Virus record (IMG/VR): IMGVR_UViG_3300010259_000013
Coordinates: 1-18,662 of that record
Length of the DNA: 18,662 nucleotides
DNA from: a virus
Lineage: Duplodnaviria > Heunggongvirae > Uroviricota > Caudoviricetes
Direction: 5' to 3' (one strand)
In this document: positions 124 through 17,796 of the stretch, in pieces
Layout of the letters: the number at the start of each line of letters is the position of its first letter
How positions within the stretch are numbered: position 1 is the first letter of the stretch
Position numbers and translations under genes: made by a program
The notes under the pieces: model-generated
The model's input: the letters and a program-made list of their open reading frames with translations, nothing else
Databases searched by the model: none
Told to the model about the DNA's origin: nothing

Positions 124-202
124 TAGGGTGTCACCAGTAGGGGCTTTCAACGGTACAATGCGGGTTTGAGCGGCATAAATTACCACTGAAAGCCCTTAAA
201 CG

Positions 203-1216: not shown

Positions 1217-1331
1217 CAGAAAACCCTCCGAGTGGTGTGTTTTTTGGCGACTACTAATCGCTTTTTTCGTGGTGGCTGAAATTTAGCCACCAATAGTAGG
1301 CACTTGTGATGAATATATTCACGATGAATTG

Positions 1332-1631
1332 TTAACCAGTCTTTTGACCGGAGTGGGGCGACGTTGTTTCGTTTTGCCCAAAGTGTGCGAGAGCGGGCGC
1401 AATTTGCCCGGACTCAGGAGCGATCTGATTGGTCATGAACCATAAAGTGTATTTGGTGAATTGTGGGGTCTGCAGGATGTTCATCATGACATCTGTTGGA
1501 GGTGTTGAACGACCACTTTCATAGTAACTCAGCGTGCCATACGGAACCCCTGTTAAATCAGCAAGTTGTTGTCTGCTCAAATACTCTGATTTTCGCATTA
1601 AGACTATCTTCTCGCTTATCGTGTTTGACAT
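1332..1631 (-). CDS. C: Immunity repressor C (P2 C-like), helix-turn-helix
   Basis: 99-aa ORF, same length as P2 C. HTH-like segment QQLADLTGVPYGTLSYYE. Divergent from cox across an operator-bearing intergenic region. Confidence 0.9.
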   Translation of the reverse strand: MSNTISEKIVLMRKSEYLSRQQLADLTGVPYGTLSYYESGRSTPPTDVMMNILQTPQFTKYTLWFMTNQIAPESGQIAPALAHFGQNETTSPHSGQKTG

Positions 1632-1664
1632 GGTGTTTAGATCTCAATAGTATTTAGTTTAGAT
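1625..1664 (+). promoter_or_regulatory. Candidate early promoter Pe (-35 TTGACA 1625-1630, -10 TAGTAT 1648-1653) with two direct-repeat operator half-sites GTTTAGAT (1635-1642, 1657-1664)
   Basis: Hexamers have a 17-bp spacer. The two identical 8-mers are 22 bp centre-to-centre and flank the -10, which fits the P2 C-operator arrangement. Further (G/A)TTTAG copies sit at 1652 and 1672. Confidence 0.6.
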
Positions 1665-1698
1665 GTAGATTGTTTAGTGCTTGGATGTGGGCACTAAA

Positions 1699-1722
1699 AG
1701 GCATTATAAGGCATTAAACGCA
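1699..1722 (-). promoter_or_regulatory. Candidate Pc -10 (TATAAT on minus strand, complement of 1703-1708) and Cox-box-like TTAAACGCA (1714-1722)
   Basis: Perfect -10 hexamer in the right orientation for leftward transcription of C. No convincing -35. TTAAACGCA fits the Cox-box consensus TTAAA(G/C)NCA as I recall it. Confidence 0.4.
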
Positions 1723-1745
1723 ATTCATGAGGGCTGGAGGACGAC

Positions 1746-2021
1746 ATGAGCAAGCAAGTAACACTCATGACTGATGCGATTCCTTATCAGGAGTTCGCAA
1801 AACTAATAGGAAAATCGACAGGAGCGGTTCGTCGGATGATCGATAAAGGAAAGCTGCCTGTAATTGATATGACCGATCCACAATCAGCTTCAGGTCGTGC
1901 AGGTGAATATTGGGTATACCTTCCGGCATGGAATAACGGACTAAAACTGGCTTATGAAAGCCGCCCTAAAGAGATTCGTGACGGCTGGTTGATGTGGTTA
2001 GGTCTCGGTGAACCACGTTAA
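1746..2021 (+). CDS. cox: Cox (excisionase and Pc repressor), P2 Cox-like
   Basis: 91-aa ORF, same length as P2 Cox. ATG at 1746 preceded by GGAGGA. First gene of the early rightward operon opposite C. Confidence 0.9.
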   Translation: MSKQVTLMTDAIPYQEFAKLIGKSTGAVRRMIDKGKLPVIDMTDPQSASGRAGEYWVYLPAWNNGLKLAYESRPKEIRDGWLMWLGLGEPR

Positions 2022-2031
2022 GGAGAACCGT

Positions 2032-2202
2032 ATGAATGAGCCTCGTTGTATTGCTCAGTTACTGCGTAACGAAAGCTCCAGGGCGATTGACTTCACCATC
2101 ACCCACGGTAAGGGGCGTAAGGGAATCATTATCCGCACCAAAAAACAGAGTCCGTTAAAGAAGGCTCTGACCTTTCTGAAAAGCCGGAGGGTATGGAAAT
2201 GA
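2032..2202 (+). CDS. Small basic early protein of unknown function (P2 orf78 position)
   Basis: The ORF-track start at 2008 is GTG. The first ATG is 2032, with AAGGAG six nt upstream. Synteny between cox and B. Confidence 0.6.
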   Translation: MNEPRCIAQLLRNESSRAIDFTITHGKGRKGIIIRTKKQSPLKKALTFLKSRRVWK

Positions 2203-2699
2203 CAGTGATGACGCTCAATCTCGTTGAAAAACAGCCAGCAACTATGCGCCGGATAATTGGTAAGCATCTGGCTGTCCCTCGCTGGCAGGAGACATGCGAT
2301 TATTATAATCAGATGATGGAACGCGAACGGCTAACGGTTTGCTTTCATGCGCAGTTAAAACAGCGTCACGCAACGATGCGTTTTGAAGAAATGAACGACG
2401 TCGAACGTGAACGACTGGTATGTGCAATTGATGAATTGCGCGGGGCATTCTCAAAACGCCGTCAGGTTGGCGCAAGTGAGTATGCATATATTAGTTTTTT
2501 AACAGTCAGTCAGCGTCGCACTTTATTTATGCACGCACGACTGACAGAAAAAGAATTTAACCAGCCATACTGGCGAATTAATGAAGAGTCATGTTACTGG
2601 CGTGATGCTTTATTCCGTGCATTACGTGAATTATTCAGCCTGTTTGAGTATGCACCGACAATTCTGACGTCGGTAAAACCAGAGCAATATCTGCATTAA
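2199..2699 (+). CDS. B: Replication protein B (P2 B-like)
   Basis: ORF 2193-2699. Starting at the third Met (2199) gives 166 aa, equal to P2 B, with GGAGG eight nt upstream. Synteny. Confidence 0.85.
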   Translation: MTVMTLNLVEKQPATMRRIIGKHLAVPRWQETCDYYNQMMERERLTVCFHAQLKQRHATMRFEEMNDVERERLVCAIDELRGAFSKRRQVGASEYAYISFLTVSQRRTLFMHARLTEKEFNQPYWRINEESCYWRDALFRALRELFSLFEYAPTILTSVKPEQYLH

Positions 2700-2720
2700 G
2701 TAATTAACCAGAGTTTTTAA

Positions 2721-2748
2721 CGCACTTAATTGTGCGGGGCTTTTTTTT
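2721..2748 (+). terminator. Candidate intrinsic terminator or attenuator after B (stem CGCAC-TTAATT-GTGCG, then GGGC and a T8 run)
   Basis: Short hairpin followed by eight consecutive T at 2741-2748. The stem is weak; it may allow partial read-through into the downstream early genes. Confidence 0.45.
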
Positions 2749-2762
2749 GCCTGGAGAAAGTC

Positions 2763-2987
2763 ATGCATACAGTTTCTGAAAATCAGTGCGGTAAATACGC
2801 ATTACTGCTGCAACAGGCCAGAACCGAAGCACAGGCCGACGCGGCGACGCGCTTTTCTTCTCATCTTGACGCCATGATTCGCCACATCACAAAGGCGGAG
2901 TTATCCCGCGTGGAGATAGTCGAGCTGCTCAGTCAGGAGTCGGAAAAATTTCACAATATCGGATTGTCTCGCGGGGAGGTACTTTGA
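2763..2987 (+). CDS. Hypothetical early protein (P2 orf80-83 family position)
   Basis: The ORF-track start at 2730 is TTG. The first ATG is 2763, with GGAG six nt upstream. Its stop overlaps the next start (ATGA-type coupling). Confidence 0.6.
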
Positions 2988-3289
2988 TGTCCTGTTCTCA
3001 TTCAGTTGTATTACTGAATAACGCCTTAAAAATCGCCGTTATGAAAAATGGCGATTTGTCTCTTATTCAACTTTGTCTTGATAAAGAAAAACGCGACATA
3101 ACTGAATCTGTTATCGCGATTTATCAGAATGAATTAAACCTCCTGTCTGATGTGGTCAATTTACTTGTTAAACGCGCTGTATTCCACAAGCAAATTTCCT
3201 CAGTGGATGAACTGACACAATTAACGACAGAAATCGCCAGCTATTGCGCTGATGAATTTAAGAAACTGAACGACAAAAGGAGCTGGTAA
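2987..3289 (+). CDS. Hypothetical early protein
   Basis: ATG at 2987 overlaps the upstream TGA; the stop overlaps the next ATG (TAATG). Synteny with the P2 early operon. Confidence 0.6.
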   Translation: MSCSHSVVLLNNALKIAVMKNGDLSLIQLCLDKEKRDITESVIAIYQNELNLLSDVVNLLVKRAVFHKQISSVDELTQLTTEIASYCADEFKKLNDKRSW

Positions 3290-3513
3290 TGCCGGACAAC
3301 GTGGATTTTATTCAGGAACAACAGGCTGAATTACTGGAGCGCCAGATTAACGCGGCAAGGGTAAAACATTATGGTGCTTCTGCGCTGGTTTGCGAAGAGT
3401 GTGATGCGCCAATACCTGCTGCCCGTCGTGCGGCTTATCCGTCAGCCACGAGTTGTGTTTCCTGTCAGTCAGTCTTTGAAGCAAAAAACAAACATTACCG
3501 GAGAACGGCATGA
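3289..3513 (+). CDS. TraR/DksA-family C4 zinc-finger protein
   Basis: 74 aa with CEEC ... CVSC (CxxC-x16-CxxC). AAAGGAG lies upstream. Translationally coupled to its neighbours. Confidence 0.7.
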   Translation: MPDNVDFIQEQQAELLERQINAARVKHYGASALVCEECDAPIPAARRAAYPSATSCVSCQSVFEAKNKHYRRTA

Positions 3514-3785
3514 GTATTCGTATTGAAATTGGCGAACGTTATGTCGTTACCAGTGACAGCTTTCAGTTTATTCTCCACGAGAAAAAGAGAGCGGAAAGCG
3601 GTAAAAACGCCGGTCAGGAATGGCTGGCGGTGGTTGGTTATTACCCGAAATTAAGTCAGCTCGTTTCCGGCCTGATGCATCACGATATTCTGACCGGAAG
3701 CGCAAAATCTTTTGCCGATTTAAACGCGCAGGTTGAGCAACTCAGCAGGCGTTGTTCAGAGGCTTTTGGCTCATATGGCCGTTAA
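3510..3785 (+). CDS. Hypothetical early protein immediately upstream of A
   Basis: 91-aa ORF. Start overlaps the upstream stop (ATGA); the 3' end overlaps the A start. Confidence 0.6.
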   Translation: MSIRIEIGERYVVTSDSFQFILHEKKRAESGKNAGQEWLAVVGYYPKLSQLVSGLMHHDILTGSAKSFADLNAQVEQLSRRCSEAFGSYGR

Positions 3786-6060
3786 AGCCTCCGGGCGTTT
3801 TGTCCCTCCGTCAGCATTTGCTGCAGGCACCGGTAAGGCGTTTACCGGTGCTTATGCATGGAACGCGCCACGCGAGGCTGTCGGGCGCGAAAGACCCCTT
3901 ACACGTGACGAGATGCGTCAGGTGCAAGGTGTTTTATCCACGATTAACCGCCTGCCTTACTTTTTGCGCTCGCTGTTTACGTCACGCTATGACTACATCC
4001 GGCGCAATAAAAGCCCGGTGCACGGGTTTTATTTCCTCACATCCACTTTTCAGCGTCGTTTATGGCCGCGCATTGAGCGTGTGAATCAGCGCCATGAAAT
4101 GAACACCGACGCGTCGATGCTGTTTCTGGCTGAGCGTGACCACTATGCGCGCCTGCCGGGGATGAATGACAAGGAGCTGAAAAAGTTTGCCGCCCGTATC
4201 TCATCGCAGCTTTTCATGATGTATGAGGAACTCTGCGATGCATGGGTTGATGCACATGGCGAGAAAGAATCGCTGTTTACGGATGAGGCGCAGGCGCATC
4301 TGTATGGTCATGTTGCTGGCGCTGCACGTGCTTTCAATATTTCCCCGCTCTACTGGAAAAAATACCGTAAAGGACAGATGACCACGAGGCAGGCATATTC
4401 TGCCATTGCCCGTCTGTTTAACGATGAGTGGTGGACTCATCAGCTTAAAGGCCAGCGTATGCGCTGGCATGAGGCGTTACTGATTGCTGTCGGGGAGGTC
4501 AATAAAGACCGTTCTCCTTATGCCAGTAAACATGCCATTCGTGATGTGCGTGCACGCCGCCAGGCAAATCTGGAATTTCTTAAATCGTGTGACCTCGAAA
4601 ACAGGGAAACCGGCGAGCGCATCGACCTTATCAGTAAGGTGATGGGCAGTATTTCTAATCCTGAAATTCGCCGGATGGAGCTGATGAACACCATCGCCGG
4701 TATTGAGCGTTACGCCGCCGCAGAGGGTGATGTGGGGATGTTTATCACGCTGACCGCGCCGTCAAAGTATCACCCGACACGTCAGGTCGGAAAAGGCGAA
4801 AGTAAAACCGTCCAGCTAAATCACGGCTGGAATGATGAGGCATTTAATCCAAAGGATGCGCAGCGTTATCTCTGCCGTATCTGGAGCCTGATGCGCACGG
4901 CATTCAAGGATAATGATTTACAGGTCTACGGTTTGCGAGTCGTCGAGCCACACCACGACGGAACGCCGCACTGGCATATGATGCTTTTTTGTAATCCACG
5001 CCAGCGTAACCAGATTATCGAAATCATGCGTCGCTATGCGCTCAAAGAGGATGGTGACGAAAGAGGAGCCGCGCGAAACCGTTTTCAGGCAAAACACCTT
5101 AACCGGGGCGGTGCTGCGGGATATATCGCGAAATACATCTCAAAAAACATCGATGGCTATGCACTGGATGGTCAGCTCGATAACGATACCGGCAGGCCGC
5201 TGAAAGACACCGCAGCGGCTGTTACCGCATGGGCGTCAACGTGGCGCATCCCGCAATTTAAAACGGTTGGCCTGCCGACAATGGGGGCTTACCGTGAACT
5301 ACGCAAATTGCCTCGCGGCGTCAGCATTGCTGATGAGTTTGACGAGCGCGTCGAGGCTGCACGCGCCGCCGCAGACAGTGGTGATTTTGCGTTGTATATC
5401 AGCGCGCAGGGCGGGGCAAATGTCCCGCGCGATTGTCAGACTGTCAGGGTCGCCCGTAGCCCGTCGGATGAAGTTAACGAGTACGAGGAAGAAGTCGAGA
5501 GAGTGGTCGGCATTTACGCGCCGCATCTCGGCGCGCGTCATATTCATATCACCAGAACGACGGACTGGCGCATTGTGCCGAAAGTTCCGGTCGTTGAGCC
5601 TTTGACTTTAAAAAGCGGCATCGCCGCGCCTCGGAGTCCTGTCAATAACTGTGGAAAACTCACCGGTGGTGATACTTCGTTACCGGCTCCCACACCTTCA
5701 GAGCACGCCGCAGCAGTGCTTAATCTGGTTGATGACGGTGTTATCGAATGGAATGACCAGGAGGTCGTGAAGGCGCTAAGGGGCGCATTAAAACACGGAC
5801 TGAGAACACCAAATCGTCAGCAAAGAGCCGGAAGCCCGTTAAAACCGCATGAAATAGCGCCATCGGCCAGAATGACCCGGTCGGAACGAATGCAAATTAC
5901 CCGTATCCGCGTTGACCTTGCTCAGAACGGTATCAGGCCGCAGCGATGGGTGCTTGAGGCGCTGGCGCGTGGCGCGACCGTAAATTATGACGGGAAAAAA
6001 TTCACGTATCCGGTCGCTGATGAGTGGCCGGGATTCTCAACAGTAATGGAGTGGAAATGA
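3775..6060 (+). CDS. A: Replication initiation protein A, rolling-circle HUH endonuclease (P2 A-like)
   Basis: ORF 3733-6060. Starting at ATG 3775 (MAVKASGRF...) gives 761 aa, matching P2 A. HUH-type motif PHWHMMLF and paired tyrosines YIAKYISK. In P2 the ori lies inside this gene; I could not place it from sequence. Confidence 0.92.
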   Translation: MAVKASGRFVPPSAFAAGTGKAFTGAYAWNAPREAVGRERPLTRDEMRQVQGVLSTINRLPYFLRSLFTSRYDYIRRNKSPVHGFYFLTSTFQRRLWPRIERVNQRHEMNTDASMLFLAERDHYARLPGMNDKELKKFAARISSQLFMMYEELCDAWVDAHGEKESLFTDEAQAHLYGHVAGAARAFNISPLYWKKYRKGQMTTRQAYSAIARLFNDEWWTHQLKGQRMRWHEALLIAVGEVNKDRSPYASKHAIRDVRARRQANLEFLKSCDLENRETGERIDLISKVMGSISNPEIRRMELMNTIAGIERYAAAEGDVGMFITLTAPSKYHPTRQVGKGESKTVQLNHGWNDEAFNPKDAQRYLCRIWSLMRTAFKDNDLQVYGLRVVEPHHDGTPHWHMMLFCNPRQRNQIIEIMRRYALKEDGDERGAARNRFQAKHLNRGGAAGYIAKYISKNIDGYALDGQLDNDTGRPLKDTAAAVTAWASTWRIPQFKTVGLPTMGAYRELRKLPRGVSIADEFDERVEAARAAADSGDFALYISAQGGANVPRDCQTVRVARSPSDEVNEYEEEVERVVGIYAPHLGARHIHITRTTDWRIVPKVPVVEPLTLKSGIAAPRSPVNNCGKLTGGDTSLPAPTPSEHAAAVLNLVDDGVIEWNDQEVVKALRGALKHGLRTPNRQQRAGSPLKPHEIAPSARMTRSERMQITRIRVDLAQNGIRPQRWVLEALARGATVNYDGKKFTYPVADEWPGFSTVMEWK

Positions 6061-6512
6061 TGGCAAAAATTCACGAGGTAAAGCTGCACGCAAAATATTT
6101 TGACCTTGTGCTGGAAGGAAAGAAACGCGCAGAGTTTCGGAAAAATGACCGTAATTATGAGCGCGGGGACACGTTGATTTTGCATGAATGGGTGCAGGGT
6201 GTGTTTACGGGGCGAAAGGTTGAAGCCCGGATAACAGATGTTACTGACCTGTCAGACTGGCTGGAAGATTATGTCTTGCTAAGTATTGAGCTGCTTAATA
6301 CGGGCGCATATAAGATTGTGAACTGGAAAGAACTTAGTGAGCGTGGCCTGGTATTCAGAATTAATCATGAAATTATGCATCAGCTCGGCCTTGCTGTTAT
6401 GTATGAACCAGAGACGGGGATGTCTGGCGGGGCAATGGTTGCCACGGATGGAGTATGGATCTATTCAGATGAACAGATGGAGCGTGCACAGCAAAACGGG
6501 TGGCTCGGATAA
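6057..6512 (+). CDS. DUF3850/ASCH-like protein
   Basis: Tandem ATGs at 6057 and 6060 overlap the A stop. The N-terminal segment IHEVKLHAKYFDLVLEGKKRAEFRKNDRNYERGDTL resembles the DUF3850 signature. Confidence 0.65.
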   Translation: MMAKIHEVKLHAKYFDLVLEGKKRAEFRKNDRNYERGDTLILHEWVQGVFTGRKVEARITDVTDLSDWLEDYVLLSIELLNTGAYKIVNWKELSERGLVFRINHEIMHQLGLAVMYEPETGMSGGAMVATDGVWIYSDEQMERAQQNGWLG

Positions 6513-6566
6513 TGCACAGAATACCAGGCGAGATACCGCACCATAAAAACTAAAAATATCAAGCTG

Positions 6567-6725
6567 ATGGCCATTGTTCACCGTCTACAGCAGATTATGG
6601 TCAACGAAAATCTGACGCCCGATGAACTAGTCGGGTGTGCCGAAATAGTCCGGGATAATTACGGGCGACTTAACTATATCGGTATCGGTCAGTCCAGAGT
6701 TGCGCCACCACCACGCAGACGATAG
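6567..6725 (+). CDS. Possible small ORF (52 aa), weak
   Basis: ATG at 6567 to TAG at 6723-6725; the stop sits five bp before palindromic element copy 1. No clear Shine-Dalgarno. Below the ORF-track size cutoff. Confidence 0.2.
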   Translation: MAIVHRLQQIMVNENLTPDELVGCAEIVRDNYGRLNYIGIGQSRVAPPPRRR

Positions 6726-6729
6726 AGAA

Positions 6730-6796
6730 CGCCGCCAGTCGTGAAACTTGTTTTCAGGGCTGGCGGCGTTGAACAACGAGCGAAGCGAGGCGTTAG
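6730..6796. repeat. Palindromic element copy 1: ~17-bp imperfect hairpin (CGCCGCCAG...CTGGCGGCG) plus conserved 28-bp tail ending GAGGCGTTAG
   Basis: Seen in sequence. Stem 6730-6768 with inner arm TGAAAC/GTTTTCA. About 80% identical to copy 2 over ~67 bp. Confidence 0.8.
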
Positions 6797-6954
6797 TTGA
6801 CAGTCATATTTTTACTGCGTTGGTGCTGGTTTTTGACGGTTGAAAGGAGTTAGCCCGGAGAGCAAAAGCCAACAACTTACAAATATTCAAAAGTAAGCTT
6901 CCTGTTGCTAACATAAGGTCGATTTTTTATGTGGATGATGCAAAAAGGATAGCT

Positions 6955-7686
6955 ATGGATATTGTAATCGCTTTTCTATCACTCGCTTTTTTCGTTGCTT
7001 TTTTCATCGGGTTAATCAAGCCATCACTGGTGCGGATGCCAAACCGTAAACGTGCAAGTGCGGTTTATCTCGGAGGTAGTTTTGCATTGAGCATAATTGG
7101 TTCAATACTCTACCCAACAGAAAAAAGCCAGCCAGTTGCTAAAACTGAAACAGCAACCGTAGCAGAACACCAGGCTCAAAAAACATTCGAATATACTGAA
7201 AAAACACTCAAGGAATATCGGAACGAGCCAAAGAAGACTCGACACGATATTGTGAATAGTTACATTAACTTTAAGAAAGTGCCAGTCACCGCATCAGATG
7301 CATTTTATGCCTGCATGAGTGAGTATACATTTACCAAAGATGATGAGTTGAAACTCGGTGATGTTCTTGGGTGGTGCTTTAATGATTATGAAAATGACCC
7401 GAATTCATTAAACAATAAAATCAATCTTGATACATTTCAGAGTAATTTTAGTGGTTGGGATGGTTCTTATCGGCCATTGGAAAAATTAATTAAAGATAAT
7501 ATGAACGATGATTCATCTTATAAACATGTGTCAACGGTATATCATTTGGTTTTGAATAAAGACCCGCACGCCATTGTGAAAACCACGTTTCGCGGCACTA
7601 ATGCTTATGGTGGAGTGGTAAAGCAGACCGTAGCGGCGCGCGTCAACGTGCGAACGGGGGAGGTCGATTCGATACTCGACAATTAA
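6955..7686 (+). CDS. Membrane-anchored cargo protein 1 (two predicted N-terminal TM helices, ~180-aa soluble C-terminal domain), unknown function
   Basis: The ORF-track start at 6931 is GTG. The first ATG is 6955, with AAAGGA five nt upstream. Hydrophobic stretches IVIAFLSLAFFVAFFIGLI and AVYLGGSFALSIIGSILY. AT-rich codon usage unlike the backbone. Confidence 0.7.
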   Translation: MDIVIAFLSLAFFVAFFIGLIKPSLVRMPNRKRASAVYLGGSFALSIIGSILYPTEKSQPVAKTETATVAEHQAQKTFEYTEKTLKEYRNEPKKTRHDIVNSYINFKKVPVTASDAFYACMSEYTFTKDDELKLGDVLGWCFNDYENDPNSLNNKINLDTFQSNFSGWDGSYRPLEKLIKDNMNDDSSYKHVSTVYHLVLNKDPHAIVKTTFRGTNAYGGVVKQTVAARVNVRTGEVDSILDN

Positions 7687-7702
7687 ACAATATAGTGACA
7701 TA

Positions 7703-7769
7703 CCCCGCCAGTACTGAAACTTGTTTTCAGTGCTGGCGGGGTTAAACAAAGAGCATCGTGAGGCGTTAG
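7703..7769. repeat. Palindromic element copy 2: near-perfect 39-bp palindrome (CCCCGCCAGTACTGAAAC-ttg-GTTTTCAGTGCTGGCGGGG) plus conserved tail ending GAGGCGTTAG
   Basis: Seen in sequence. 17-bp stem with one G-T wobble. Sits 16 bp after the stop of cargo protein 1 and 25 bp before the start of cargo protein 2. Confidence 0.8.
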
Positions 7770-7794
7770 ATTAAAATCATTTGAGGCAGATAAA

Positions 7795-8457
7795 ATGCTT
7801 TGGAAAATAATTTCTTTTTTATTAGTTGGTATTTGTATGTTTGCTTTCGGTTTATGGTTAGGCTCTATTCAGGCTGAATGGGCGAAACCAGAGCATAAAG
7901 ATGCTGTTGCTTATTTAGCAATGATCGGAGGATGGGTCTCAGGAATTGCAACGTCAGTCGCAGTAATTATTTCATTGTATGCGACATACCAAGCATCACA
8001 GAATAATGTTGAAAAATTAAGTTTAACCTATAAGCCTTACTCTAGCGTAGACAAAGAAAATTATTGTGCCAATATTGAGGTTGTAAATTTGCGGAGCGTT
8101 CCGGTACATATACAAGAGTTTTGCTTAGAATTTAGTGGGATAAATAATCATTTCAACATAAACGAACTAAAAGCAAATGGGAAGGAGATCCCGTATTCTT
8201 TATACCAAGTAGGAGAGAAATGGGAGTTTGCCTTCTATCCTTTTGCAAAGCCGGGAAATATGAGGTTCTATAAAAGCTTAAGTGAGAATGGTAATCCAAG
8301 TTTTCGTAGTGGTTTCTTTGTGGTTAAAACATCAATGAAACAATACAAATTAAGGATGCCTAATGAGCTTTTGGAAATTATGAAAATTAGCTATGAAAAG
8401 CAAATGGAAATACGGAAGAATTATAAGGAAATGCATGGTAAAGAGATGGGCTTTTAA
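7795..8457 (+). CDS. Membrane-anchored cargo protein 2 (two predicted N-terminal TM helices, ~150-aa soluble C-terminal domain), unknown function
   Basis: ATG at 7795 with GAGG eight nt upstream. Hydrophobic stretches IISFLLVGICMFAFGLWLG and AVAYLAMIGGWVSGIATSVAVIISLYA. AT-rich. Confidence 0.7.
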   Translation: MLWKIISFLLVGICMFAFGLWLGSIQAEWAKPEHKDAVAYLAMIGGWVSGIATSVAVIISLYATYQASQNNVEKLSLTYKPYSSVDKENYCANIEVVNLRSVPVHIQEFCLEFSGINNHFNINELKANGKEIPYSLYQVGEKWEFAFYPFAKPGNMRFYKSLSENGNPSFRSGFFVVKTSMKQYKLRMPNELLEIMKISYEKQMEIRKNYKEMHGKEMGF

Positions 8458-8580
8458 AACGCATTAACAAGCATCAAATTGCATGCGCATCCCTCCCCTG
8501 TTGTGTTTGAGCGCTGCCAGTGATGGTGTGCCTCTGGCGTGTTCGTGCAACTGCATTAAAACCGCCCCATGAAGCGGGCG

Positions 8581-8599
8581 GGCGAGGCGGGGAAAGCAT
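8581..8599. other. cos cohesive-end site (P2/186 type)
   Basis: GGCGAGGCGGGGAAAGCAT matches the 19-nt P2/186 cohesive end as I recall it (the P2 last base may be C). It sits in a GC-rich, backbone-like block upstream of the Q/P packaging genes. Confidence 0.7.
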
Positions 8600-8676
8600 T
8601 GCGCTGGACCTAGAGGCTTTGCTATCTTATTTGATGTTATTGGTATTTATTCAATTGAATGACCGTAGAGGATGAA

Positions 8677-9273
8677 ATGTGTCACATTGAAATTTTTCGG
8701 GAAGCACTAACAGTAAAGGATCCTATATATATATACAGGAAGTATCTTTTAGGGCATGACGTGTGGTATTTTAGAAATAAATTGGGAAAATTAAATTATG
8801 CAGAGGTTTATGATGATCTTAAGATACTTATGTCAGAAAGATTAGGTGTTCACATTAATAATGTTGCTATTGTTGGAAGTGCGAAGTTAGGATTTAGCAT
8901 AACACCCACAGAAGATAAAGCCTTTAGAGAGTTTAACGAAGATAGTGATATTGATATTGTTGTCGTATCCCCTGAGCTTTTTAGAAAGTCTTGGGATGCA
9001 TATCTTGATGTGGCAAAAAGACAAAGAATACCTTATTACTATAAAATCACAAGCAATATATTTAGAAAGTTTGTATCCTTAAAGAATATTGATTATAATA
9101 ATGAATTCTTTCGAGATTGGAAAAACAAAATAGAACCTTGTCAAAAAGATTTGCAGGTTATATATGAAGTACCGAACGAGATTAACTATAGAATATATGA
9201 GTCTTGGGAGGATGTGGAACGCTATCATGTTCAAGGCTTAGAAAAACTTAAAAACTTAATGGGGCAAATTTAA
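8677..9273 (+). CDS. Putative minimal nucleotidyltransferase (Pol-beta-superfamily-like) cargo protein
   Basis: ORF 8659-9273. The better start is ATG 8677 (AGAGGA upstream), giving 198 aa. Candidate NTase motif hhGS...DxD: VAIVGSAKLG (8875-8892) and DSDIDIVVV (8941-8958), with a longer-than-usual insert between. AT-rich. Stop is one nt before the next ATG. Confidence 0.55.
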   Translation: MCHIEIFREALTVKDPIYIYRKYLLGHDVWYFRNKLGKLNYAEVYDDLKILMSERLGVHINNVAIVGSAKLGFSITPTEDKAFREFNEDSDIDIVVVSPELFRKSWDAYLDVAKRQRIPYYYKITSNIFRKFVSLKNIDYNNEFFRDWKNKIEPCQKDLQVIYEVPNEINYRIYESWEDVERYHVQGLEKLKNLMGQI

Positions 9274-9274
9274 A

Positions 9275-10336
9275 ATGAGTATTGTGAGAAACGTTAAAGT
9301 TGAAAGCAGAGATATAAAGTGGGTATCTGATAATTTTAAGTCAGGCGAGTTGGTTATTGATAATTCATTTCAAAGGCGATATGTTTGGGTTAAAAAAGAT
9401 AAAGTATCGTTAATTGAATCAATACTCCTCGGTTATCCTATTCCTGAAGTTTATCTGTGGCAAAATAAGACCGATCCTGAAACAGGGCAGAGAATTCATT
9501 CTATTGTTGATGGGCAGCAACGATTAGGTGCGGTTTTTGATTTTGTAACAGATAAGTTTGCATTAGAAAAACGTTATCTAGAATATAAGGATTCTGATTT
9601 TTCTGGAAAAAAATTTTCTGAATTAGATACAGAACAAAAAGCTGTTATCTGGGGATATGATTTTTCAATTCGATTTATTAATAATGATATAACTATTGAT
9701 GACATTAAAAATTTATTTCTTCGTCTTAATAGAACTAATATAACTCTTAACCCTCAAGAGTTAAGGAATGCGGAATTTAATGGTGAGTTTATTAAATTGG
9801 CGAGCTCTTTGTCGGAACATCAATTTTGGACAGAGTTCAAGGTGTTCAACTCATCTGACTTGAGACGAATGCTTGATATCCAGTTTATTAGTACTATGTT
9901 AATATTTATTAGAATGGGTATTGCTGAAGAAACATCCCAGGCGGCTATTAACAAAGTTTATGATCAATATAATGAAACGTATCCAGAGGCTGAACAAGAT
10001 AAAGAGTTGTTCATGGATTTGCTAAATCTGCTTGCTAATATGATAAGGGGTAAGCAATCTCTTGAATATATTGCAAAAAGAAAAACACACCTCTATACAT
10101 TATTTACATTGTCTTTTTACTTATTTAAAACTGGTATTGATTCTGATAGTGGGTACCAAAATGTAGCTGTAAAATTGGATGAGTGGTTTAATAATTATAT
10201 AAATGAGGTGGATTTTGATGATGAGATGGTTAACGTTTTATTAAATGAATATCGTACGCTTTCCCAAGAAGGCGTGCAGAAAAAGCAAAATAGGCAACGG
10301 AGACTGGATATTTTGAAGGGTTATATAACCATGTAA
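9275..10336 (+). CDS. DUF262 / ParB-like (GmrS-like NTPase fold) protein lacking a recognisable DUF1524/HNH nuclease domain
   Basis: 353 aa. N-terminal FQRRYVW and the hallmark DGQQR motif (9508-9522) of the DUF262 family. No His-Me/HNH motif seen in the C-terminal ~150 aa. Translationally coupled to the upstream NTase-like gene. Confidence 0.75.
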   Translation: MSIVRNVKVESRDIKWVSDNFKSGELVIDNSFQRRYVWVKKDKVSLIESILLGYPIPEVYLWQNKTDPETGQRIHSIVDGQQRLGAVFDFVTDKFALEKRYLEYKDSDFSGKKFSELDTEQKAVIWGYDFSIRFINNDITIDDIKNLFLRLNRTNITLNPQELRNAEFNGEFIKLASSLSEHQFWTEFKVFNSSDLRRMLDIQFISTMLIFIRMGIAEETSQAAINKVYDQYNETYPEAEQDKELFMDLLNLLANMIRGKQSLEYIAKRKTHLYTLFTLSFYLFKTGIDSDSGYQNVAVKLDEWFNNYINEVDFDDEMVNVLLNEYRTLSQEGVQKKQNRQRRLDILKGYITM

Positions 10337-10340
10337 TTAT

Positions 10341-10367
10341 CCCCCCCCCCTAGTATTTAGGAGGGGG
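10341..10367. repeat. C10 homopolymer (10341-10350) facing a GGAGGGGG run (10360-10367); potential C/G stem-loop just 3' of the DUF262 gene
   Basis: Seen in sequence, four bp after the DUF262 stop. Could form a GC stem with an A/T-rich loop. No T-tract follows. Confidence 0.5.
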
Positions 10368-10445
10368 CATGGCTTATTGGCTAAAGTTTTTCAGGTTTAT
10401 TTATTGAACTTGAGAATATACTTATAATTAAACAAGAGGATTATG

Positions 10446-10469
10446 AATAAAAAGCCGCCCGCAGGCGGC
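10446..10469 (-). terminator. Intrinsic terminator for the leftward Q-P late operon
   Basis: On the minus strand: stem GCCGCC-tgcg-GGCGGC (plus 10454-10469) followed by TTTTTATT (plus 10446-10453), five bp after the Q stop. Confidence 0.7.
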
Positions 10470-10474
10470 GATGT

Positions 10475-11509
10475 TCAGCCGTTGTCAGTGTCCAGTGAGT
10501 AGTTTTTAAATCGGATGACCTCCTGACCGAGCCAGCCGTTTATCTCGCGGATCCTGTCCTGTAACGGGATAAGCTCATTGCGGACAAAGACCTTTGCCAC
10601 TTTCTCAATATCACCCAGCGACCCGACGTTCTCCGGCTTGCCACCCATCAACTGAAAGGGGATGCGGTGTGCGTCCAGCAGGTCAGCGGCGCTGGCTTTT
10701 TTGATATTAAAAAAATCGTCCTTCGTTGCCACTTCACTGAGGGGGATAATTTTAATGCCGTCGGCTTTCCCCTGCGGGGCATAGAGAAACAGATTTTTAA
10801 AGTTATTGCGGCCTTTCGACTTAACCATGTTTTCGCGGAGCATTTCGATATCGTTGCGATCCTGCACGGCATCAGTGACGTACATGATATATCCGGCATG
10901 CGCGCCGTTTTCGTAATACTTGCGGCGGAACAGCGTGGCTGATTCATTCAGCCAGGCAGAGTTAAGGGCGCTGAGATATTCCGGCAGACCGTACAGCTCC
11001 TGATTAATATCCGGCTCCAGCAGGTGAAACACGGAGCCGGGCGCGAAAGGTGTCGGCTCGTTGAAGGACGGCACCCACCAGTAAACATCCTCCTCCACGC
11101 CACGGCGGGTATATTTTGCCGGTGAGGTTTCCAGTCTGATGACCTTACCGGTGGTGCTGTAACGCTTTTCCAGAAACGCATTACCGAATACCAGAAAATC
11201 CAGCACAAAGCGGCTGAAATCCTGCTGAGAAAGCCACGGGTGTGGGATAAACGTTGAGGCCAGAATATTACGTTTGACGTAAATCGGTGAGCTGTGATGC
11301 ACGGCAGCACGCAGGCTTTTTGCCAGACCGGTAAAGCTGACCGGTGGCTCATACCATCTGCCGTTACTGATGCACTCGACGTAATCCAGAATGTCACGGC
11401 GGTCGAGTACCGGCACCGGCTCACCAAAGGTGAATGCCTCCATTTTCGGGGCGCTGGCGGTCATTTTTTTTGCCGCAGGTTGCGGTGTTTTCCCTTTTTT
11501 CTTGCTCAT
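10475..11509 (-). CDS. Q: Portal protein (P2 Q-like)
   Basis: 344-aa ORF, same length as P2 Q. Its ATG overlaps the P stop (ATGA). Synteny Q-P divergent from O-N-M-L. Confidence 0.92.
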   Translation of the reverse strand: MSKKKGKTPQPAAKKMTASAPKMEAFTFGEPVPVLDRRDILDYVECISNGRWYEPPVSFTGLAKSLRAAVHHSSPIYVKRNILASTFIPHPWLSQQDFSRFVLDFLVFGNAFLEKRYSTTGKVIRLETSPAKYTRRGVEEDVYWWVPSFNEPTPFAPGSVFHLLEPDINQELYGLPEYLSALNSAWLNESATLFRRKYYENGAHAGYIMYVTDAVQDRNDIEMLRENMVKSKGRNNFKNLFLYAPQGKADGIKIIPLSEVATKDDFFNIKKASAADLLDAHRIPFQLMGGKPENVGSLGDIEKVAKVFVRNELIPLQDRIREINGWLGQEVIRFKNYSLDTDNG

Positions 11510-13281
11510 CAGTAAAACTCCAGAATGGTGGATGTCAGCGGGGTGCTGATACCGGCGGTGAGTGGCTCATTTAACAGGGCGTGCATGGTCGCCCAGGCGA
11601 GGTCGGCGTGGCTGGCTTCCTCGCTACGGCTGGCCTCATAGGTGGCGCTGCGTCCGCTGCTGGTCATGGTCTTGCGGATAGCCATAAACGAGCTGGTGAT
11701 GTCGGTGGCGCTGACGTCATATTCCAGACAGCCACGGCGGATGACGTCTTTTGCCTTGAGCACCATTGCGGTTTTCATTTCCGGCGTGTAGCGGATATCG
11801 CGCGCGGCGGGATAGAACGAGCGCACGAGCTGGAACACGCCGACACCGAGGCCGGTGGCATCAATTCCGATGTATTCGACGTTGTATTTTTCGGTGAGTT
11901 TGCGGATGGATTCCGCCTGAGTGGCAAAGTCCATGCCTTTCCACTGGTGACGCTCAAGTATTCTGAATTTACCTCCGGCCACCACCGGCGGTGCCAGCAC
12001 CACGCATCCGGCGCTGTCGCCACGGTGTGACGGGTCGTAACCAATCCATACCGGGCGGGAGCCGAACGGATTGGCGGCAAACGGCGCATAGTCTTCCCAT
12101 TCTTCCAGCGTGTCGACCATGCAGCGTTGCAGCTCCTCGAACGGGAACACCGACGCCTTGTCGTCAACAAATTCACACATGAACAGGTTTTTAAAATCGT
12201 CGGCGCTGTTTTCACGTTTGAGCTGCTCAATGTCGAACAGCGTGCAGCCACCTTTCAGGGCGTCCTCAATGGTGACAATCTGCCGCCACTGGCCGTCCGC
12301 ACAGAGAAGCCCCCCGGCAAGGGCGTTATGACTGACGTCGATTTCCACGCGTTCGGCGGCGCTGGCGCGTCCCCGGTTGAACAGTTCACCCGACCAGAAT
12401 GGGTAGGCGTCGTGCGCCAGCGTGGACGGGGTGGAGAAATAGGTCGAGCGCAGGTGGCTCTGTGAGGCCATACCTGATGCCACCTTACGCAGTACCTGAA
12501 AATTCGGGATCCAGAAAATCTCGTCGACGTACAGGTCGCCGTTATGGCTCTGTGCGGTGTTGGAGTTGGTGCCGAGAAAAATCAGTTTTGCGCCGTTATT
12601 GCCCAGGACAATCGGGTCACCGGTCAGGTCAACGTCAACCAGCCGGGCAAAGGCGATGATGTATTCGCGGAACACATACGCCTGCGTTTTACTGGCCGAC
12701 AGAAAAATCTGGTTATGACCGGTTTTCAGGGCGCGCAGCAGCGCCTCGCGGGAAAAATAAAACGTCGCGCCAATCTGGCGGGATTTCAGGATATCGCGGA
12801 TGCGGTGCTCAAGCCCGGCGCGATACCAGTGCAACTGATAGTCGAAAGACTGCTCAAAGAAAATCTGCTCCAGCTTTTCGATGGCCTCGTCACTGAAAAA
12901 ATTCTTTTTCGGTTTGCGCCGCCCGCCTTTGTTGCGGTTAGCGACGTTCGGATTAAGGTCTGCCTCGTTGCCGGTCTGGCTGTAGCGGTTGACCCGTGCC
13001 AGTCGTTCAATCTGGCGTCCCAGCAGGTCAATTTCCTTGAAGTCACTGCCGGTTTTCTGCGGTTTGATGATGAGCTGGGTCAGCCGCGCTTCCAGGCTCA
13101 TTTCCACACGGCTGATGGGGGCAACACTGTCCCAGCCGTCGCGCTGTTTCCAGCTCTGCACCGTCGGGCGTTTCATCTGCAACATGGCGGCAATCTGCGG
13201 CACGGAAAACCCCTGCCAGTACAGCAGCGCCGCCTGACGACGCGGGTCGTGTAAAAGAGTGGTGTCTGTGGTGATGGTCAT
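11509..13281 (-). CDS. P: Terminase large (ATPase) subunit (P2 P-like)
   Basis: The ORF-track start at 13311 is TTG. The first ATG is 13281 (MTITTDTTLL...), giving 590 aa, matching P2 P. Confidence 0.92.
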   Translation of the reverse strand: MTITTDTTLLHDPRRQAALLYWQGFSVPQIAAMLQMKRPTVQSWKQRDGWDSVAPISRVEMSLEARLTQLIIKPQKTGSDFKEIDLLGRQIERLARVNRYSQTGNEADLNPNVANRNKGGRRKPKKNFFSDEAIEKLEQIFFEQSFDYQLHWYRAGLEHRIRDILKSRQIGATFYFSREALLRALKTGHNQIFLSASKTQAYVFREYIIAFARLVDVDLTGDPIVLGNNGAKLIFLGTNSNTAQSHNGDLYVDEIFWIPNFQVLRKVASGMASQSHLRSTYFSTPSTLAHDAYPFWSGELFNRGRASAAERVEIDVSHNALAGGLLCADGQWRQIVTIEDALKGGCTLFDIEQLKRENSADDFKNLFMCEFVDDKASVFPFEELQRCMVDTLEEWEDYAPFAANPFGSRPVWIGYDPSHRGDSAGCVVLAPPVVAGGKFRILERHQWKGMDFATQAESIRKLTEKYNVEYIGIDATGLGVGVFQLVRSFYPAARDIRYTPEMKTAMVLKAKDVIRRGCLEYDVSATDITSSFMAIRKTMTSSGRSATYEASRSEEASHADLAWATMHALLNEPLTAGISTPLTSTILEFY

Positions 13282-13454
13282 GAATACCTCGCCGTGATGA
13301 ATACACGGCAAGGCTACTGAGTCGCGCCCCGCGATTCGCTAAGGTGCTGTTGTGTCAGTGATAAGCCATCCGGGACTGATGGCGGAGGATGCGCATCGTC
13401 GGGAAACTGATGCCGACATGTGACTCCTCTAATCACTATTCAGGACTCCTGACA
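13282..13454. promoter_or_regulatory. Divergent late-promoter region (PP leftward, PO rightward), presumably Ogr-activated
   Basis: 173-bp intergenic region between divergent P and O. One partial Ogr-like TGT-N12-CCA element at 13351-13368. Hexamers could not be assigned confidently. Confidence 0.45.
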
Positions 13455-14309
13455 ATGGCAAAAAAAGTCTCAAAATTCTTTCGTATCGGCGTTGAGGGTG
13501 ACACCTGTGACGGGCGTGTCATCAGTGCGCAGGATATTCAGGAAATGGCCGAAACCTTTGACCCGCGAGTCTATGGTTGCCGCATTAACCTGGAACATCT
13601 ACGCGGCATTTTGCCTGACGGTATTTTTAAGCGTTATGGCGATGTGGCCGAACTGAAGGCCGAAAAGATTGACGATGATTCGGCGCTGAAAGGCAAATGG
13701 GCGCTGTTTGCGAAAATCACCCCGACCGATGACCTTATCGCGATGAACAAGGCCGCGCAGAAGGTCTACACCTCAATGGAAATTCAGCCGAACTTTGCCA
13801 ATACCGGCAAATGTTATCTGGTGGGGCTGGCCGTCACCGATGACCCGGCAAGCCTCGGCACGGAATACCTGGAATTCTGCCGCACGGCAAAACACAACCC
13901 CCTGAACCGCTTCAAATTAAGCCCTGAAAACCTGATTTCAGTGGCAACGCCTGTTGAGCTGGAATTTGAAGACCTGCCTGAAACCGTGTTCACCGCCCTG
14001 ACCGAAAAGGTGAAATCCATTTTTGGCCGCAAACAGGCCAGCGATGACGCCCGTCTGAATGATGTGCATGAAGCGGTGACCGCTGTTGCTGAACATGTGC
14101 AGGAAAAACTGAGCGCCACTGAGCAGCGCCTCGCTGAGATGGAAACCGCCTTTTCCGCACTTAAGCAGGATGTGACTGACAGGGCGGATGAAACCAGCCA
14201 GGCATTCACCCGCCTGAAAAACAGTCTTGACCACACCGAAAGTCTGACCCAGCAGCGCCGCAGCAAGGCCACCGGTGGTGGCGGTGACGCCCTGATGACG
14301 AACTGCTGA
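13455..14309 (+). CDS. O: Capsid scaffolding protein (P2 O-like)
   Basis: ORF 13389-14309. ATG at 13455 (MAKKVSKFF...) gives 284 aa, matching P2 O. Confidence 0.9.
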   Translation: MAKKVSKFFRIGVEGDTCDGRVISAQDIQEMAETFDPRVYGCRINLEHLRGILPDGIFKRYGDVAELKAEKIDDDSALKGKWALFAKITPTDDLIAMNKAAQKVYTSMEIQPNFANTGKCYLVGLAVTDDPASLGTEYLEFCRTAKHNPLNRFKLSPENLISVATPVELEFEDLPETVFTALTEKVKSIFGRKQASDDARLNDVHEAVTAVAEHVQEKLSATEQRLAEMETAFSALKQDVTDRADETSQAFTRLKNSLDHTESLTQQRRSKATGGGGDALMTNC

Positions 14310-14367
14310 CCGGCGTCAGTCAGTCCGGGAAAACCTTCACGATTAACCCTTAATTTCAGGAAAAACT

Positions 14368-15441
14368 ATGCGCCAGGAAACCCGCTTTAAATTTAATGCC
14401 TACCTGTCCCGTGTTGCCGAACTGAACGGCATCGACGCCGGTGATGTGTCGAAAAAATTCACCGTTGAACCGTCGGTCACCCAGACCCTGATGAACACCA
14501 TGCAGGAGTCCTCTGACTTTCTGACCCGCATCAACATTGTGCCGGTCAGCGAAATGAAAGGGGAAAAAATTGGCATCGGTGTCACCGGCTCCATTGCCAG
14601 CACCACCGACACCGCCGGTGGCACCGAGCGTCAGCCGAAGGACTTCTCGAAGCTGGCGTCAAACAAGTACGAATGCGACCAGATTAACTTCGATTTTTAT
14701 ATCCGCTACAAAACGCTTGACCTGTGGGCGCGTTATCAGGATTTCCAGCTCCGTGTCCGTAACGCCATTATCAAACGCCAGTCCCTTGATTTCATCATGG
14801 CCGGTTTTAACGGCGTGAAGCGTGCCGAAACCTCTGACCGCAGCAGCAATCCGATGCTGCAGGATGTGGCGGTCGGCTGGCTGCAGAAATACCGCAATGA
14901 AGCCCCGGCGCGCGTGATGAGTAAGGTCACTGACGAGGAAGGCCGCACCACCTCTGAGGTTATCCGCGTGGGTAAGGGCGGTGATTATGCCAGCCTTGAT
15001 GCACTGGTGATGGATGCGACCAACAACCTGATTGAGCCGTGGTATCAGGAAGACCCTGACCTTGTGGTGATTGTGGGGCGTCAGTTACTGGCGGACAAGT
15101 ATTTCCCCATCGTTAACAAGGAGCAGGACAACAGCGAAATGCTGGCCGCTGACGTCATCATCAGCCAGAAACGCATCGGTAACCTGCCGGCGGTACGCGT
15201 CCCGTACTTCCCGGCGGATGCGATGCTCATCACGAAGCTGGAAAACCTGTCCATCTACTACATGGATGACAGCCATCGCCGAGTGATTGTGGAAAACCCG
15301 AAACTCGACCGCGTGGAGAACTACGAGTCAATGAACATTGATTACGTGGTGGAAGACTACGCCGCCGGTTGTCTGGTGGAAAAAATTAAGGTCGGTGATT
15401 TCTCCACACCGGCTAAAGCGACCGCAGAGCCGGGAGCGTAA
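14368..15441 (+). CDS. N: Major capsid protein (P2 N-like)
   Basis: 357-aa ORF, same length as P2 N. Synteny O-N-M-L. Confidence 0.92.
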   Translation: MRQETRFKFNAYLSRVAELNGIDAGDVSKKFTVEPSVTQTLMNTMQESSDFLTRINIVPVSEMKGEKIGIGVTGSIASTTDTAGGTERQPKDFSKLASNKYECDQINFDFYIRYKTLDLWARYQDFQLRVRNAIIKRQSLDFIMAGFNGVKRAETSDRSSNPMLQDVAVGWLQKYRNEAPARVMSKVTDEEGRTTSEVIRVGKGGDYASLDALVMDATNNLIEPWYQEDPDLVVIVGRQLLADKYFPIVNKEQDNSEMLAADVIISQKRIGNLPAVRVPYFPADAMLITKLENLSIYYMDDSHRRVIVENPKLDRVENYESMNIDYVVEDYAAGCLVEKIKVGDFSTPAKATAEPGA

Positions 15442-15444
15442 CCG

Positions 15445-16188
15445 ATGACGAGTCCCGCACAGCGCCACATGATGCGGGTCTCGGCAGCGATAACCGCGCA
15501 GCGGGAAGCCGCCCCGCTGCGACATGCAACTGTCTATGAGCAGATGCTGGTTAAGCTCGCCGCAGACCAGCGCACACTGAAAGCGATTTATTCAAAAGAG
15601 CTGAAGGCCGCGAAAAAACGCGAACTGCTGCCGTTCTGGTTGCCGTGGGTGAACGGCGTGCTGGAGCAGGGCAAAGGTGCACAGGATGACATTCTGATGA
15701 CGGTCATGCTGTGGCGTCTGGATACCGGCGATATTGCCGGTGCGCTGGAGATTGCCCGTTATGCCCTGAAGTACGGTCTGACCATGCCGGGTAAACACTG
15801 CCGCACCCCGCCGTACATGTTCACCGAGGAAGTGGCGCTTGCGGCCATGCGCGCTCACGCTGCCGGTGAGTCTGTGGATCCCCGCCTGCTGATGGACACC
15901 CTCGAACTGACCGCCACGGCTGACATGCCTGATGAAGTGCGCGCAAAGCTGCACAAAATCACCGGTCTGTTTCTGCGTGACGCTGGTAATGCCGCAGGGG
16001 CGCTGGCACACCTGCAACGTGCGACACAGCTCGACTGTCAGGCAGGCGTCAAAAAAGAGATTGAACGACTGGAGCGGGAGCTGAAACCGAAGCCGGAGCC
16101 GCAGCCCAAAGCGGCCACCCGCGCCCCGCGTAAGACCCGGAGCGTGACACCGGCAAAACGTGGACGCCCGAAAAAGAAAGCCAGTTAA
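15445..16188 (+). CDS. M: Terminase small/endonuclease subunit (P2 M-like)
   Basis: 247-aa ORF, same length as P2 M. Synteny. Confidence 0.9.
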   Translation: MTSPAQRHMMRVSAAITAQREAAPLRHATVYEQMLVKLAADQRTLKAIYSKELKAAKKRELLPFWLPWVNGVLEQGKGAQDDILMTVMLWRLDTGDIAGALEIARYALKYGLTMPGKHCRTPPYMFTEEVALAAMRAHAAGESVDPRLLMDTLELTATADMPDEVRAKLHKITGLFLRDAGNAAGALAHLQRATQLDCQAGVKKEIERLERELKPKPEPQPKAATRAPRKTRSVTPAKRGRPKKKAS

Positions 16189-16287
16189 CAACCGAATGCG
16201 CCCCGCGCCAGGGCGGCACGCCGGTCAGTGAGGGTGAATCACCTGACACTGCACCGGCGTCCACCGCCCGACTTTTCAGAGGTAGTC

Positions 16288-16797
16288 ATGATGACGCTGA
16301 TTATTCCGCGAAAGGAGGCTCCCGTGTCCGGTGAGGGTACGGTGGTCATCCCGCAACCGGCAGGCGACGAGCCGGTGATTAAAAACACGTTCTTTTTTCC
16401 CGATATCGACCCGAAGCGCGTCCGGGAACGTATGCGCCTTGAGCAGACCGTCGCCCCCGCCCGTCTGCGTGAGGCCATCAAGTCAGGCATGGCAGAGACG
16501 AATGCGGAGCTGTACGAGTACCGCGAACAGAAAATTGCCGCCGGTTTTACGCGTCTGGCGGACGTCCCGGCGGACGACATCGACGGTGAAAGCATCAAGG
16601 TTTTTTACTACGAGCGCGCCGTGTGTGCGATGGCGACCGCGTCGCTTTATGAGCGTTACCGCGGCGTGGATGCCAGTGCGAAAGGCGACAAGAAGGCCGA
16701 CAGCATTGACAGCACCATTGATGAGCTGTGGCGGGATATGCGCTGGGCGGTGGCGCGTATCCAGGACAAGCCGCGCTGCATCGTGAGTCAAATCTGA
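16288..16797 (+). CDS. L: Head completion/stabilisation protein (P2 L-like)
   Basis: ORF 16228-16797. ATG at 16288 (GAGG upstream) gives 169 aa, matching P2 L. Confidence 0.88.
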   Translation: MMTLIIPRKEAPVSGEGTVVIPQPAGDEPVIKNTFFFPDIDPKRVRERMRLEQTVAPARLREAIKSGMAETNAELYEYREQKIAAGFTRLADVPADDIDGESIKVFYYERAVCAMATASLYERYRGVDASAKGDKKADSIDSTIDELWRDMRWAVARIQDKPRCIVSQI

Positions 16798-17000: not shown

Positions 17001-17003
17001 CGC

Positions 17004-17782: not shown

Positions 17783-17796
17783 ACGGAGTAAACACC

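Follow-up and report, generated by a model that had tools for sequence, protein, structure and literature searches.

A P2-type cos site that appears to separate two cargo bays in a P2-like Escherichia coli prophage, with an NTase-like/DUF262 gene pair in place of the cos-to-Q spacer

The DNA analyzed here (hereafter the window: all 18,662 nt of IMG/VR virus record IMGVR_UViG_3300010259_000013, positions 1 to 18,662) is half of a P2-like E. coli prophage, and we hold with high confidence that it carries a genuine P2-type cos site in the middle of its accessory region, that this site splits the region into two cargo bays, and that the right bay represents a replaced spacer. The identity of the cos site, the replacement junctions, the foreign composition of the replacing DNA and the recurrence of the site in other prophages are established by sequence. 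The architecture itself is not new, as it is a known feature of P2-like phages in which an insertion site beside cos has been described since the 1990s, and the current understanding of P2 packaging and defence hotspots is left standing. What is specific to the window is the cargo itself, a gene for a nucleotidyltransferase (NTase)-like protein followed by a DUF262 gene, and a junction that sits very close against the margin of the cos core.

The cos site and its genomic setting

The genes for the repressor, cox and the replication endonuclease (A) follow one another in the window in that order, and the capsid genes come after terminase gene P (Table 1). The arrangement A, cos, Q, P is that of a P2-type cos, positioned between the replication/accessory end and the portal and terminase genes, and the Q protein is 100% identical to one in a Peduovirus P2 record. 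This gene order fits what a preliminary description of the sequence had proposed, namely that cos lies inside the cargo region and that the modules on its two sides differ. The GC content is ~0.55 in the backbone (0.54-0.56) and drops to 0.30-0.40 over positions 6750-10250. The homologue of orf91 looks like a backbone gene rather than cargo; such a homologue is kept beside A in most E. coli P2-like prophages.

Table 1. Coordinates of features in the window, in order of position.
Feature	Position	Strand	Basis or remark
int	203-1216	-	
Repressor	1332-1631	-	
A, replication endonuclease gene (backbone)	3733-6060	+	Pfam Phage_GPA, 3.3e-124; left limit of the gpA-gpQ hotspot
orf91 homologue	6024-6512		DUF3850/ASCH and DUF7415 domain; overlaps the end of gene A
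Left-bay cargo gene 1, hypothetical protein	6931-7686	+	PHROG 3403
Left-bay cargo gene 2, hypothetical protein	7795-8457	+	PHROG 16957; ends 123 nt before cos
55-bp cos core common to P2 and P4	8552-8606	+	GC hairpin, 19 nt, YGCGCGC
GC-rich hairpin abutting cos on the left	8562-8581	-	Terminator scan; followed by TTTT on the minus strand
cos cleavage region, 19-nt P2-type cohesive-end sequence	8581-8599	+	GGCGAGGCGGGGAAAGCAT
Foreign segment replacing the cos-tQ spacer	8605-10447	+	Homology ends at 8604 and resumes at ~10448; GC 0.32
NTase-like gene, 198 aa	8677-9273	+	Probable ATG at 8677; longest ORF from 8659
DUF262 (ParB-like NTPase) gene, 353 aa	9275-10336	+	Pfam GmrSD_N, 3.5e-22
tQ, intrinsic terminator of the P-Q operon	10454-10469	-	Terminator scan; right anchor of the bay
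Q, portal protein gene (backbone)	10475-11509	-	Pfam Phage_portal
Terminase P	11509-13311	-	

At a P2-type cos the gpM/gpP terminase cuts the DNA to leave 19-nt 5' overhangs in the virion. The 19-nt sequence of the window, GGCGAGGCGGGGAAAGCAT, shows 18/19 identity with the cosL/cosR annotated in P2, GGCGAGGCGGGGAAAGCAC, and the sole mismatch, T19, is a base that is also native to the cohesive end of phage 186, GGCGTGGCGGGGAAAGCAT. A search of the whole 18.7-kb window that allowed up to three mismatches returned exactly one site, the expectation from shuffled sequences being 0.01. The site lies within the 55-bp core, for which the identities were 51/55 between the window and P2, 48/55 between the window and P4 and 52/55 between P2 and P4. 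The preliminary description had placed a P2-type cos at exactly these 19 nucleotides and had pointed to an alignment with the cos region of P2 as the check; that alignment, over both the 19 nt and the core, upholds the assignment. The same 55-bp block is the "55-bp core sequence" for terminase recognition that one article (PMC5694545) credits to Ziermann & Calendar 1990, and Rousset et al. refer to the P2/P4 block as the shared core packaging signal (PMC9122126).

Consistent with the identification of cos, the 120 nt that precede it have matches in many P2-like phage records, at their right ends, and these matches end at cos. Among the matched right ends is a feature annotated as cosR in fiAA91-ss, and the phage records S164 and P22H4, which have the same left-hand genes, terminate at, or within ~10 nt of, cos. 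The core of the window differs from that of P2 at four of the 55 positions. One of the changes is a loop base that is also altered in a close relative, L001 (E. coli NZ_CP082824.1), and the differences include the last two bases (GC to TG), such that the window core ends in TGCGCTG whereas P2, P4, 186, L001 and other loaded bays keep TGCGCGC. The hairpin that abuts cos has a stem that is kept in P2, P4 and the window and loops that differ, and it may double as a terminase recognition element and a stop for leftward transcription. The window cos is also a hybrid in that it has the P2-type A5 together with the 186-type T19. C19 is present in L001 (4574-4592), which is the closest empty-site relative, and loci with homologues of the cassette (cf. 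L111, 5900-5918, and L110, 5881-5899) read ...GCAT then TGCGCGC at cos. The hybrid may be the scar of a crossover inside cos or just a point mutation.

The left bay, which is the classical tin/old position, holds two membrane-protein genes, the products of which have two N-terminal hydrophobic segments each, and the first of these genes was also found at the right end of the phage records S164, 9W and P22H4. Carriers of the arrangement appeared at one point to have distinct left-bay variants (243 versus 251 aa and 206 versus 220 aa); these reflect start-codon calls only, and the variant reading was dropped because the block from 6061 to 10448 is ~100% identical at the nucleotide level. In one relative (L002, E. 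coli NZ_CP182374.1) a gene for an IS3-family transposase (3005-4233) is inserted in the left bay, upstream of the same membrane-protein genes.

Replacement of the cos-to-Q spacer and recurrence of the site

The right bay was delimited by comparison with P2 and with L001, which is otherwise near-identical and shares A, orf91 and both left-bay genes with the window (95-98% identity), as well as the flank to the left of cos. The interval between the end of cos and the Q stop codon measures 1875 nt in the window, in agreement with the earlier estimate of roughly 1.9 kb, and 168 nt in L001, where the spacer is of the P2 type and homologous to the P2 spacer along its whole length. In the alignment to L001 and P2, homology covers cos and the adjoining TGCGC, stops at 8604, which is 5 nt past cos, and returns with the tQ hairpin, AAAAAGCCGCCCGCAGGCGGC, at ~10448, where 27 nt remain to the stop codon of Q. 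The window tQ has annotated homologues in P2 (tQ) and 186 (tW). Approximately 136 nt of P2-type spacer were exchanged for 1.84 kb of foreign DNA with a GC content of 0.32, and the foreign DNA already begins in the final two bases of the 55-bp core. In P2 itself, the right genome end carries tin and old, to the left of cos, and the left end carries Q, with just 140 nt between cosL and tQ. The preliminary description had interpreted the pair as an insertion at a second site, not at the classical tin/old position. A site distinct from tin/old is borne out, the L001 spacer being bare, but the event is a replacement of the spacer and not a simple insertion, and the hotspot had already been documented. 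Just 3' of the DUF262 stop codon there is also a hairpin, made up of a run of ten C residues (10341-10350) and a G-run (10363-10367) with no T-tract after it; it may act as a weak terminator or may be a homopolymer prone to slippage.

The frequency with which this bay is filled was determined in a survey that used the Q protein as the query and took one P2-like prophage from each of 80 species; cos was located in 76 of these prophages. The distance from cos to Q was 150-250 nt in 45 prophages (median 173), 251-500 nt in two and >500 nt in 29 (38%); 23 of the last group exceeded 1 kb and the maximum was 3963 nt. Cargo was present on both sides of cos in 18 of the 76, and the ORFs in the right bay were read in the cos-to-Q direction in 43 cases versus 16 in the opposite one. 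Most loaded bays resemble the window in that they lose homology to bare spacers shortly after cos (5-32 nt), and five loaded bays retain the whole spacer, with the cargo adjoining Q; these survey-wide junction figures refer to left anchors only, the right junction having been set manually and for the window only. The ORFs in loaded bays matched models for Lamassu, Olokun, Avs5, PDC-M03, PDC-M11, AbiC-like, SIR2, KAP NTPase and HicB proteins. Across P2-like phages, the interval between cos and Q takes one of two forms, ~170 nt or variable cargo, and backbone genes were found in it in none of the surveyed prophages, which accords with the earlier reading of the pair as cargo. The window has the traits of the cos-to-Q hotspot, that is, foreign DNA, relatives with a short spacer and unrelated cargo elsewhere.

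For annotation, the value of these results is that the gpA-gpQ hotspot can be treated as two bays parted by cos, of which the right one is filled in ~38% of the surveyed species-level prophages, and hotspot catalogues that are split at cos would part co-resident systems more cleanly. Within complete E. coli genomes the bare spacer dominates, with 1,587 having a contiguous match to cos, spacer and Q. About three of 60 evenly sampled entries matched Q alone, and two of those three were inspected and had ParA or retron Ec48 between cos and Q. In locus L115 (E. coli NZ_CM135961.1, 1944-5933) a reverse-transcriptase gene is located to the left of cos and retron Ec48 (reverse transcriptase and effector) between cos and Q, and in locus L114 (NZ_CP109953.1, 2830-5903) an ImmA/IrrE gene and a hypothetical gene are on the left and ParA is on the right.

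The arrangement of the window was seen in many E. coli assemblies (206 collection blocks), for example GCA_033617075.1 and GCA_046486625.1, and on two immunity types, while a search of 5,426 complete RefSeq E. coli genomes did not find the cassette. The block from orf91 to the cassette is ~100% identical in 15 sampled carriers. When the carriers L007 and L017-L026 were compared with positions 203-15441 of the window, the C repressor and cox fell into two types (100% versus 85-91% partial identity) and Q, P, O and N differed by no more than 2.6%. All called backbone genes in the long carrier contigs were intact. The presence of a nearly identical block on two immunity types and beside late genes that differ suggests recent recombination among phages, by which the cargo block would have spread.

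The NTase-like/DUF262 pair and transcription across cos

The protein encoded by the first gene of the cassette, of which the 198-aa form is the one called in most assemblies, has the minimal nucleotidyltransferase signature GS...DxD, with G67, S68, D91 and D93 invariant in 40 homologues. This signature weakly suggests a divergent nucleotidyltransferase, and the protein had no match to any PADLOC model. The Pfam match of the second protein is to GmrSD_N only (residues 27-168), and it matched PADLOC NsnA at 2.8e-40 over residues 7-343 of 353. It carries the QRxxxW, DGxQR and FxxxN motifs, as these were defined in PMC12065111. No nuclease domain and no DUF1524 were identified in it by Pfam, and neither an NsnB ABC-ATPase nor an NsnC effector is beside its gene, which has the NTase-like gene upstream and Q downstream. 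Because there is no DUF1524 nuclease and there are no NsnB/NsnC neighbours, the DUF262 protein was classified as neither GmrSD nor Menshen, and the pair matched no complete catalogued defence system.

The two genes co-occur in every locus found, and the pair recurs in P2-like prophages, in a lambdoid prophage and in genomic islands. P2-like prophages of Serratia and Yersinia have it beside Q, the proteins being 61-66% identical to those of the window, and in the Serratia locus cos is located just upstream of it. The pair is also present in a lambdoid prophage of E. coli, in an integrase island of Vibrio and, with a cos core still attached, beside an EcoRII restriction-modification system in Enterobacter. 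In the last of these (L110, Enterobacter asburiae GCA_048772855.1, 5843-7802) the cos core (87% over 62 nt) is linked to a module of 74% nucleotide identity that is flanked by EcoRII, a Dcm methylase gene and an HNH gene, and no Q or A homologue was found within 6 kb of it; candidate readings of the locus are a satellite, a remnant and an island that carries cos. In a Yersinia enterocolitica P2-like prophage (L112) a divergent cos-like site, GGCGTGGCGGGGATACGAT, falls at ~4838-4890 inside a gene call annotated as HicB, and so either the gene call is too long or a HicB-type gene shares the cos-to-Q bay with the pair. Our best guess from this context is that a DNA-sensing DUF262 protein acts with an NTase effector or regulator in phage defence. 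The pair may be an uncatalogued defence module and could reasonably be put forward as a new defence system of small size.

The four cargo genes of the two bays are all on the plus strand. A terminator scan found no plus-strand terminator-like site between 8457 and 8677, and the 77 nt between cos and the NTase-like gene contain no consensus promoter. A promoter of the cassette's own was considered, but no promoter pair with at least 8 of 12 consensus matches was found within the 200 nt upstream of 8677, which is weak negative evidence. Since there is no plus-strand terminator in this interval and no promoter-like pair by the consensus scan, read-through across cos from the left-bay genes into the pair is plausible, and is perhaps necessary, and to that extent the sequence agrees with the earlier proposal that the modules are co-oriented and that read-through is possible. 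The left-bay genes of the Serratia homologue are in the opposite orientation, and there could therefore be no read-through from them into the pair. Both terminator-like hairpins of the region, tQ and the one abutting cos, are on the minus strand, and they would block the leftward P-Q transcript from entering either bay in antisense. A bolder combination, in which a promoterless anti-phage pair is transcribed across cos and the hybrid A5/T19 cos marks the crossover that brought the cassette in, is in our estimation decidedly improbable. If it were true, expression of the pair would need circular or integrated DNA, a terminase cut at cos would sever the transcription unit, and cassettes in the cos-to-Q bay would be topologically gated.

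It is likely that the layout is tolerated for the following reason. Terminase would need only the ~55-bp core that P2 shares with its satellite P4, and hence the spacer to the right of the core would be dispensable. Two conserved anchors, the cos core on one side and tQ with the end of Q on the other, would bound this dispensable spacer, and cassettes could be swapped between them by recombination without harm to packaging or late-gene expression. Were the window cos cleaved in vivo, as we infer from its similarity to that of P2, the left virion end would carry the NTase-like/DUF262 pair within its first 1.8 kb, and at the right virion end the membrane-protein genes would stop 123 nt short of the terminus. 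The two bays would lie side by side again once the injected DNA had joined its ends, and likewise in the prophage. In P2 virions the right DNA end is the one located at the tail, a point on which none of the present argument depends.

Alternative readings and comparison with known systems

Three other explanations of the layout were weighed. In the first, a P4-like satellite or some other element with a cos was the donor of the cassette, by recombination or by cohesive-end joining in the cos core, and the hybrid cos is the scar. The hotspot of P4, which is on the same side of cos and in the same orientation, is in keeping with such an origin, as are the C19 of the closest empty-site relative, the cos sequence of the cassette-homologue loci and the Enterobacter locus, where the module is accompanied by a cos core but not by a Q or A gene. 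However, exchange of defences between P2 and P4 is reported not to occur in a large-scale study (PMC13586616), the search for a donor turned up nothing above 75% protein identity, and the single C-to-T change is equally explicable as a point mutation. On account of that study, exchange between P2 and P4 through cos was set aside as the main reading and is retained as a rival that we regard as unlikely.

The second explanation is that the prophage is defective for packaging, the loss of the spacer and the core changes (C19T and GC to TG) having inactivated cos, so that the layout is a scar of decay. The altered end of the core and the absence of the cassette from all complete RefSeq E. coli genomes would be in line with decay, but T19 is native to a functional phage, 186, P4 is packaged by the P2 terminase despite sharing only the 55-bp core (PMC9122126), and a P2-type spacer is missing in 38% of the surveyed prophages and in the isolates phiCTX and RSY1. 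In addition, the near-identity of the cassette block on two immunity types, with late genes that differ by up to 2.6%, suggests recent spread, and the called backbone genes of the long carrier contigs are intact. We therefore consider a defective prophage very unlikely. The third, that the pair is ancestral backbone and the short-spacer relatives arose by deletion, can draw on the age of the association with the bay implied by 61-66% protein identity in Serratia and Yersinia, but it is scarcely credible given that the short spacer of L001 is homologous to the P2 spacer throughout and is conserved sequence, not a deletion scar, that the GC content is 0.32 in the cassette versus 0.55 in the backbone, that the pair is also found in a lambdoid prophage, a Vibrio island and an Enterobacter restriction-modification island, and that unrelated cargo occupies the cos-to-Q position in other species.

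The preferred reading, two cargo bays around a P2-type cos with a replaced spacer on the right, has several precedents. The position between cosL and Q is described as a suggested hotspot in PMC5694545, with citation of Dodd & Egan 1996 and Nakayama 1999. The former paper (Virology 219:115; cited in PMC5694545 and PMC6868368) concerns retrons Ec67 and Ec86 in 186-related prophages, and according to its title foreign defence DNA there replaces the DNA between cos and a transcription terminator in a P2/186-type prophage, which is the same anatomy as in the window; the likeness is taken from the title and not from junction coordinates, and the cargo is a retron whereas that of the window is the NTase-like/DUF262 pair. 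In the Pseudomonas P2-like phage phiCTX (AB008550; Nakayama 1999), the GenBank record of which annotates cosL (1-21), the cytotoxin gene ctx (362-1222) lies between cosL and the Q homologue (1417-2469) and is read away from cos towards Q, like the pair in the window. It differs in that ctx is a toxin gene with its own annotated promoter and terminators, whereas the window has a putative defence module with no consensus promoter seen. The phage isolate RSY1 (phiRSY1) has five ORFs, ORF1-5, between cos and Q.

With respect to locus and type of cargo, the window corresponds to the gpA-gpQ defence hotspot (Rousset 2022, Vassallo 2022), which is described as "adjacent to the cos site" and often contains more than one system (PMC9122126, PMC9519451, PMC13586616). 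Those papers treat A to Q as one interval, unsplit at cos, whereas the window has cargo on both sides of it. P4 has its own cargo (gop/beta/cII), which resembles that of the window in starting close to the cos core, on its right, and in being transcribed outwards from the core, but is bounded by the integrase gene and not by the portal gene, and only the 55-bp core is common to P4 and P2. At the level of the proteins, the DUF262 protein matches the NsnA sensor of Menshen (NsnABC) over its full length, but Menshen also includes NsnB and NsnC, which are absent here, and the type IV enzyme GmrSD has DUF262 fused to a C-terminal DUF1524 His-Me nuclease, which the window protein is without. The DUF262-based systems (GmrSD, SspE, Menshen, PD-T4-2 and GrwAB/TgvAB) share the DUF262 motifs with the window protein, the partner of which is a small NTase-like protein.
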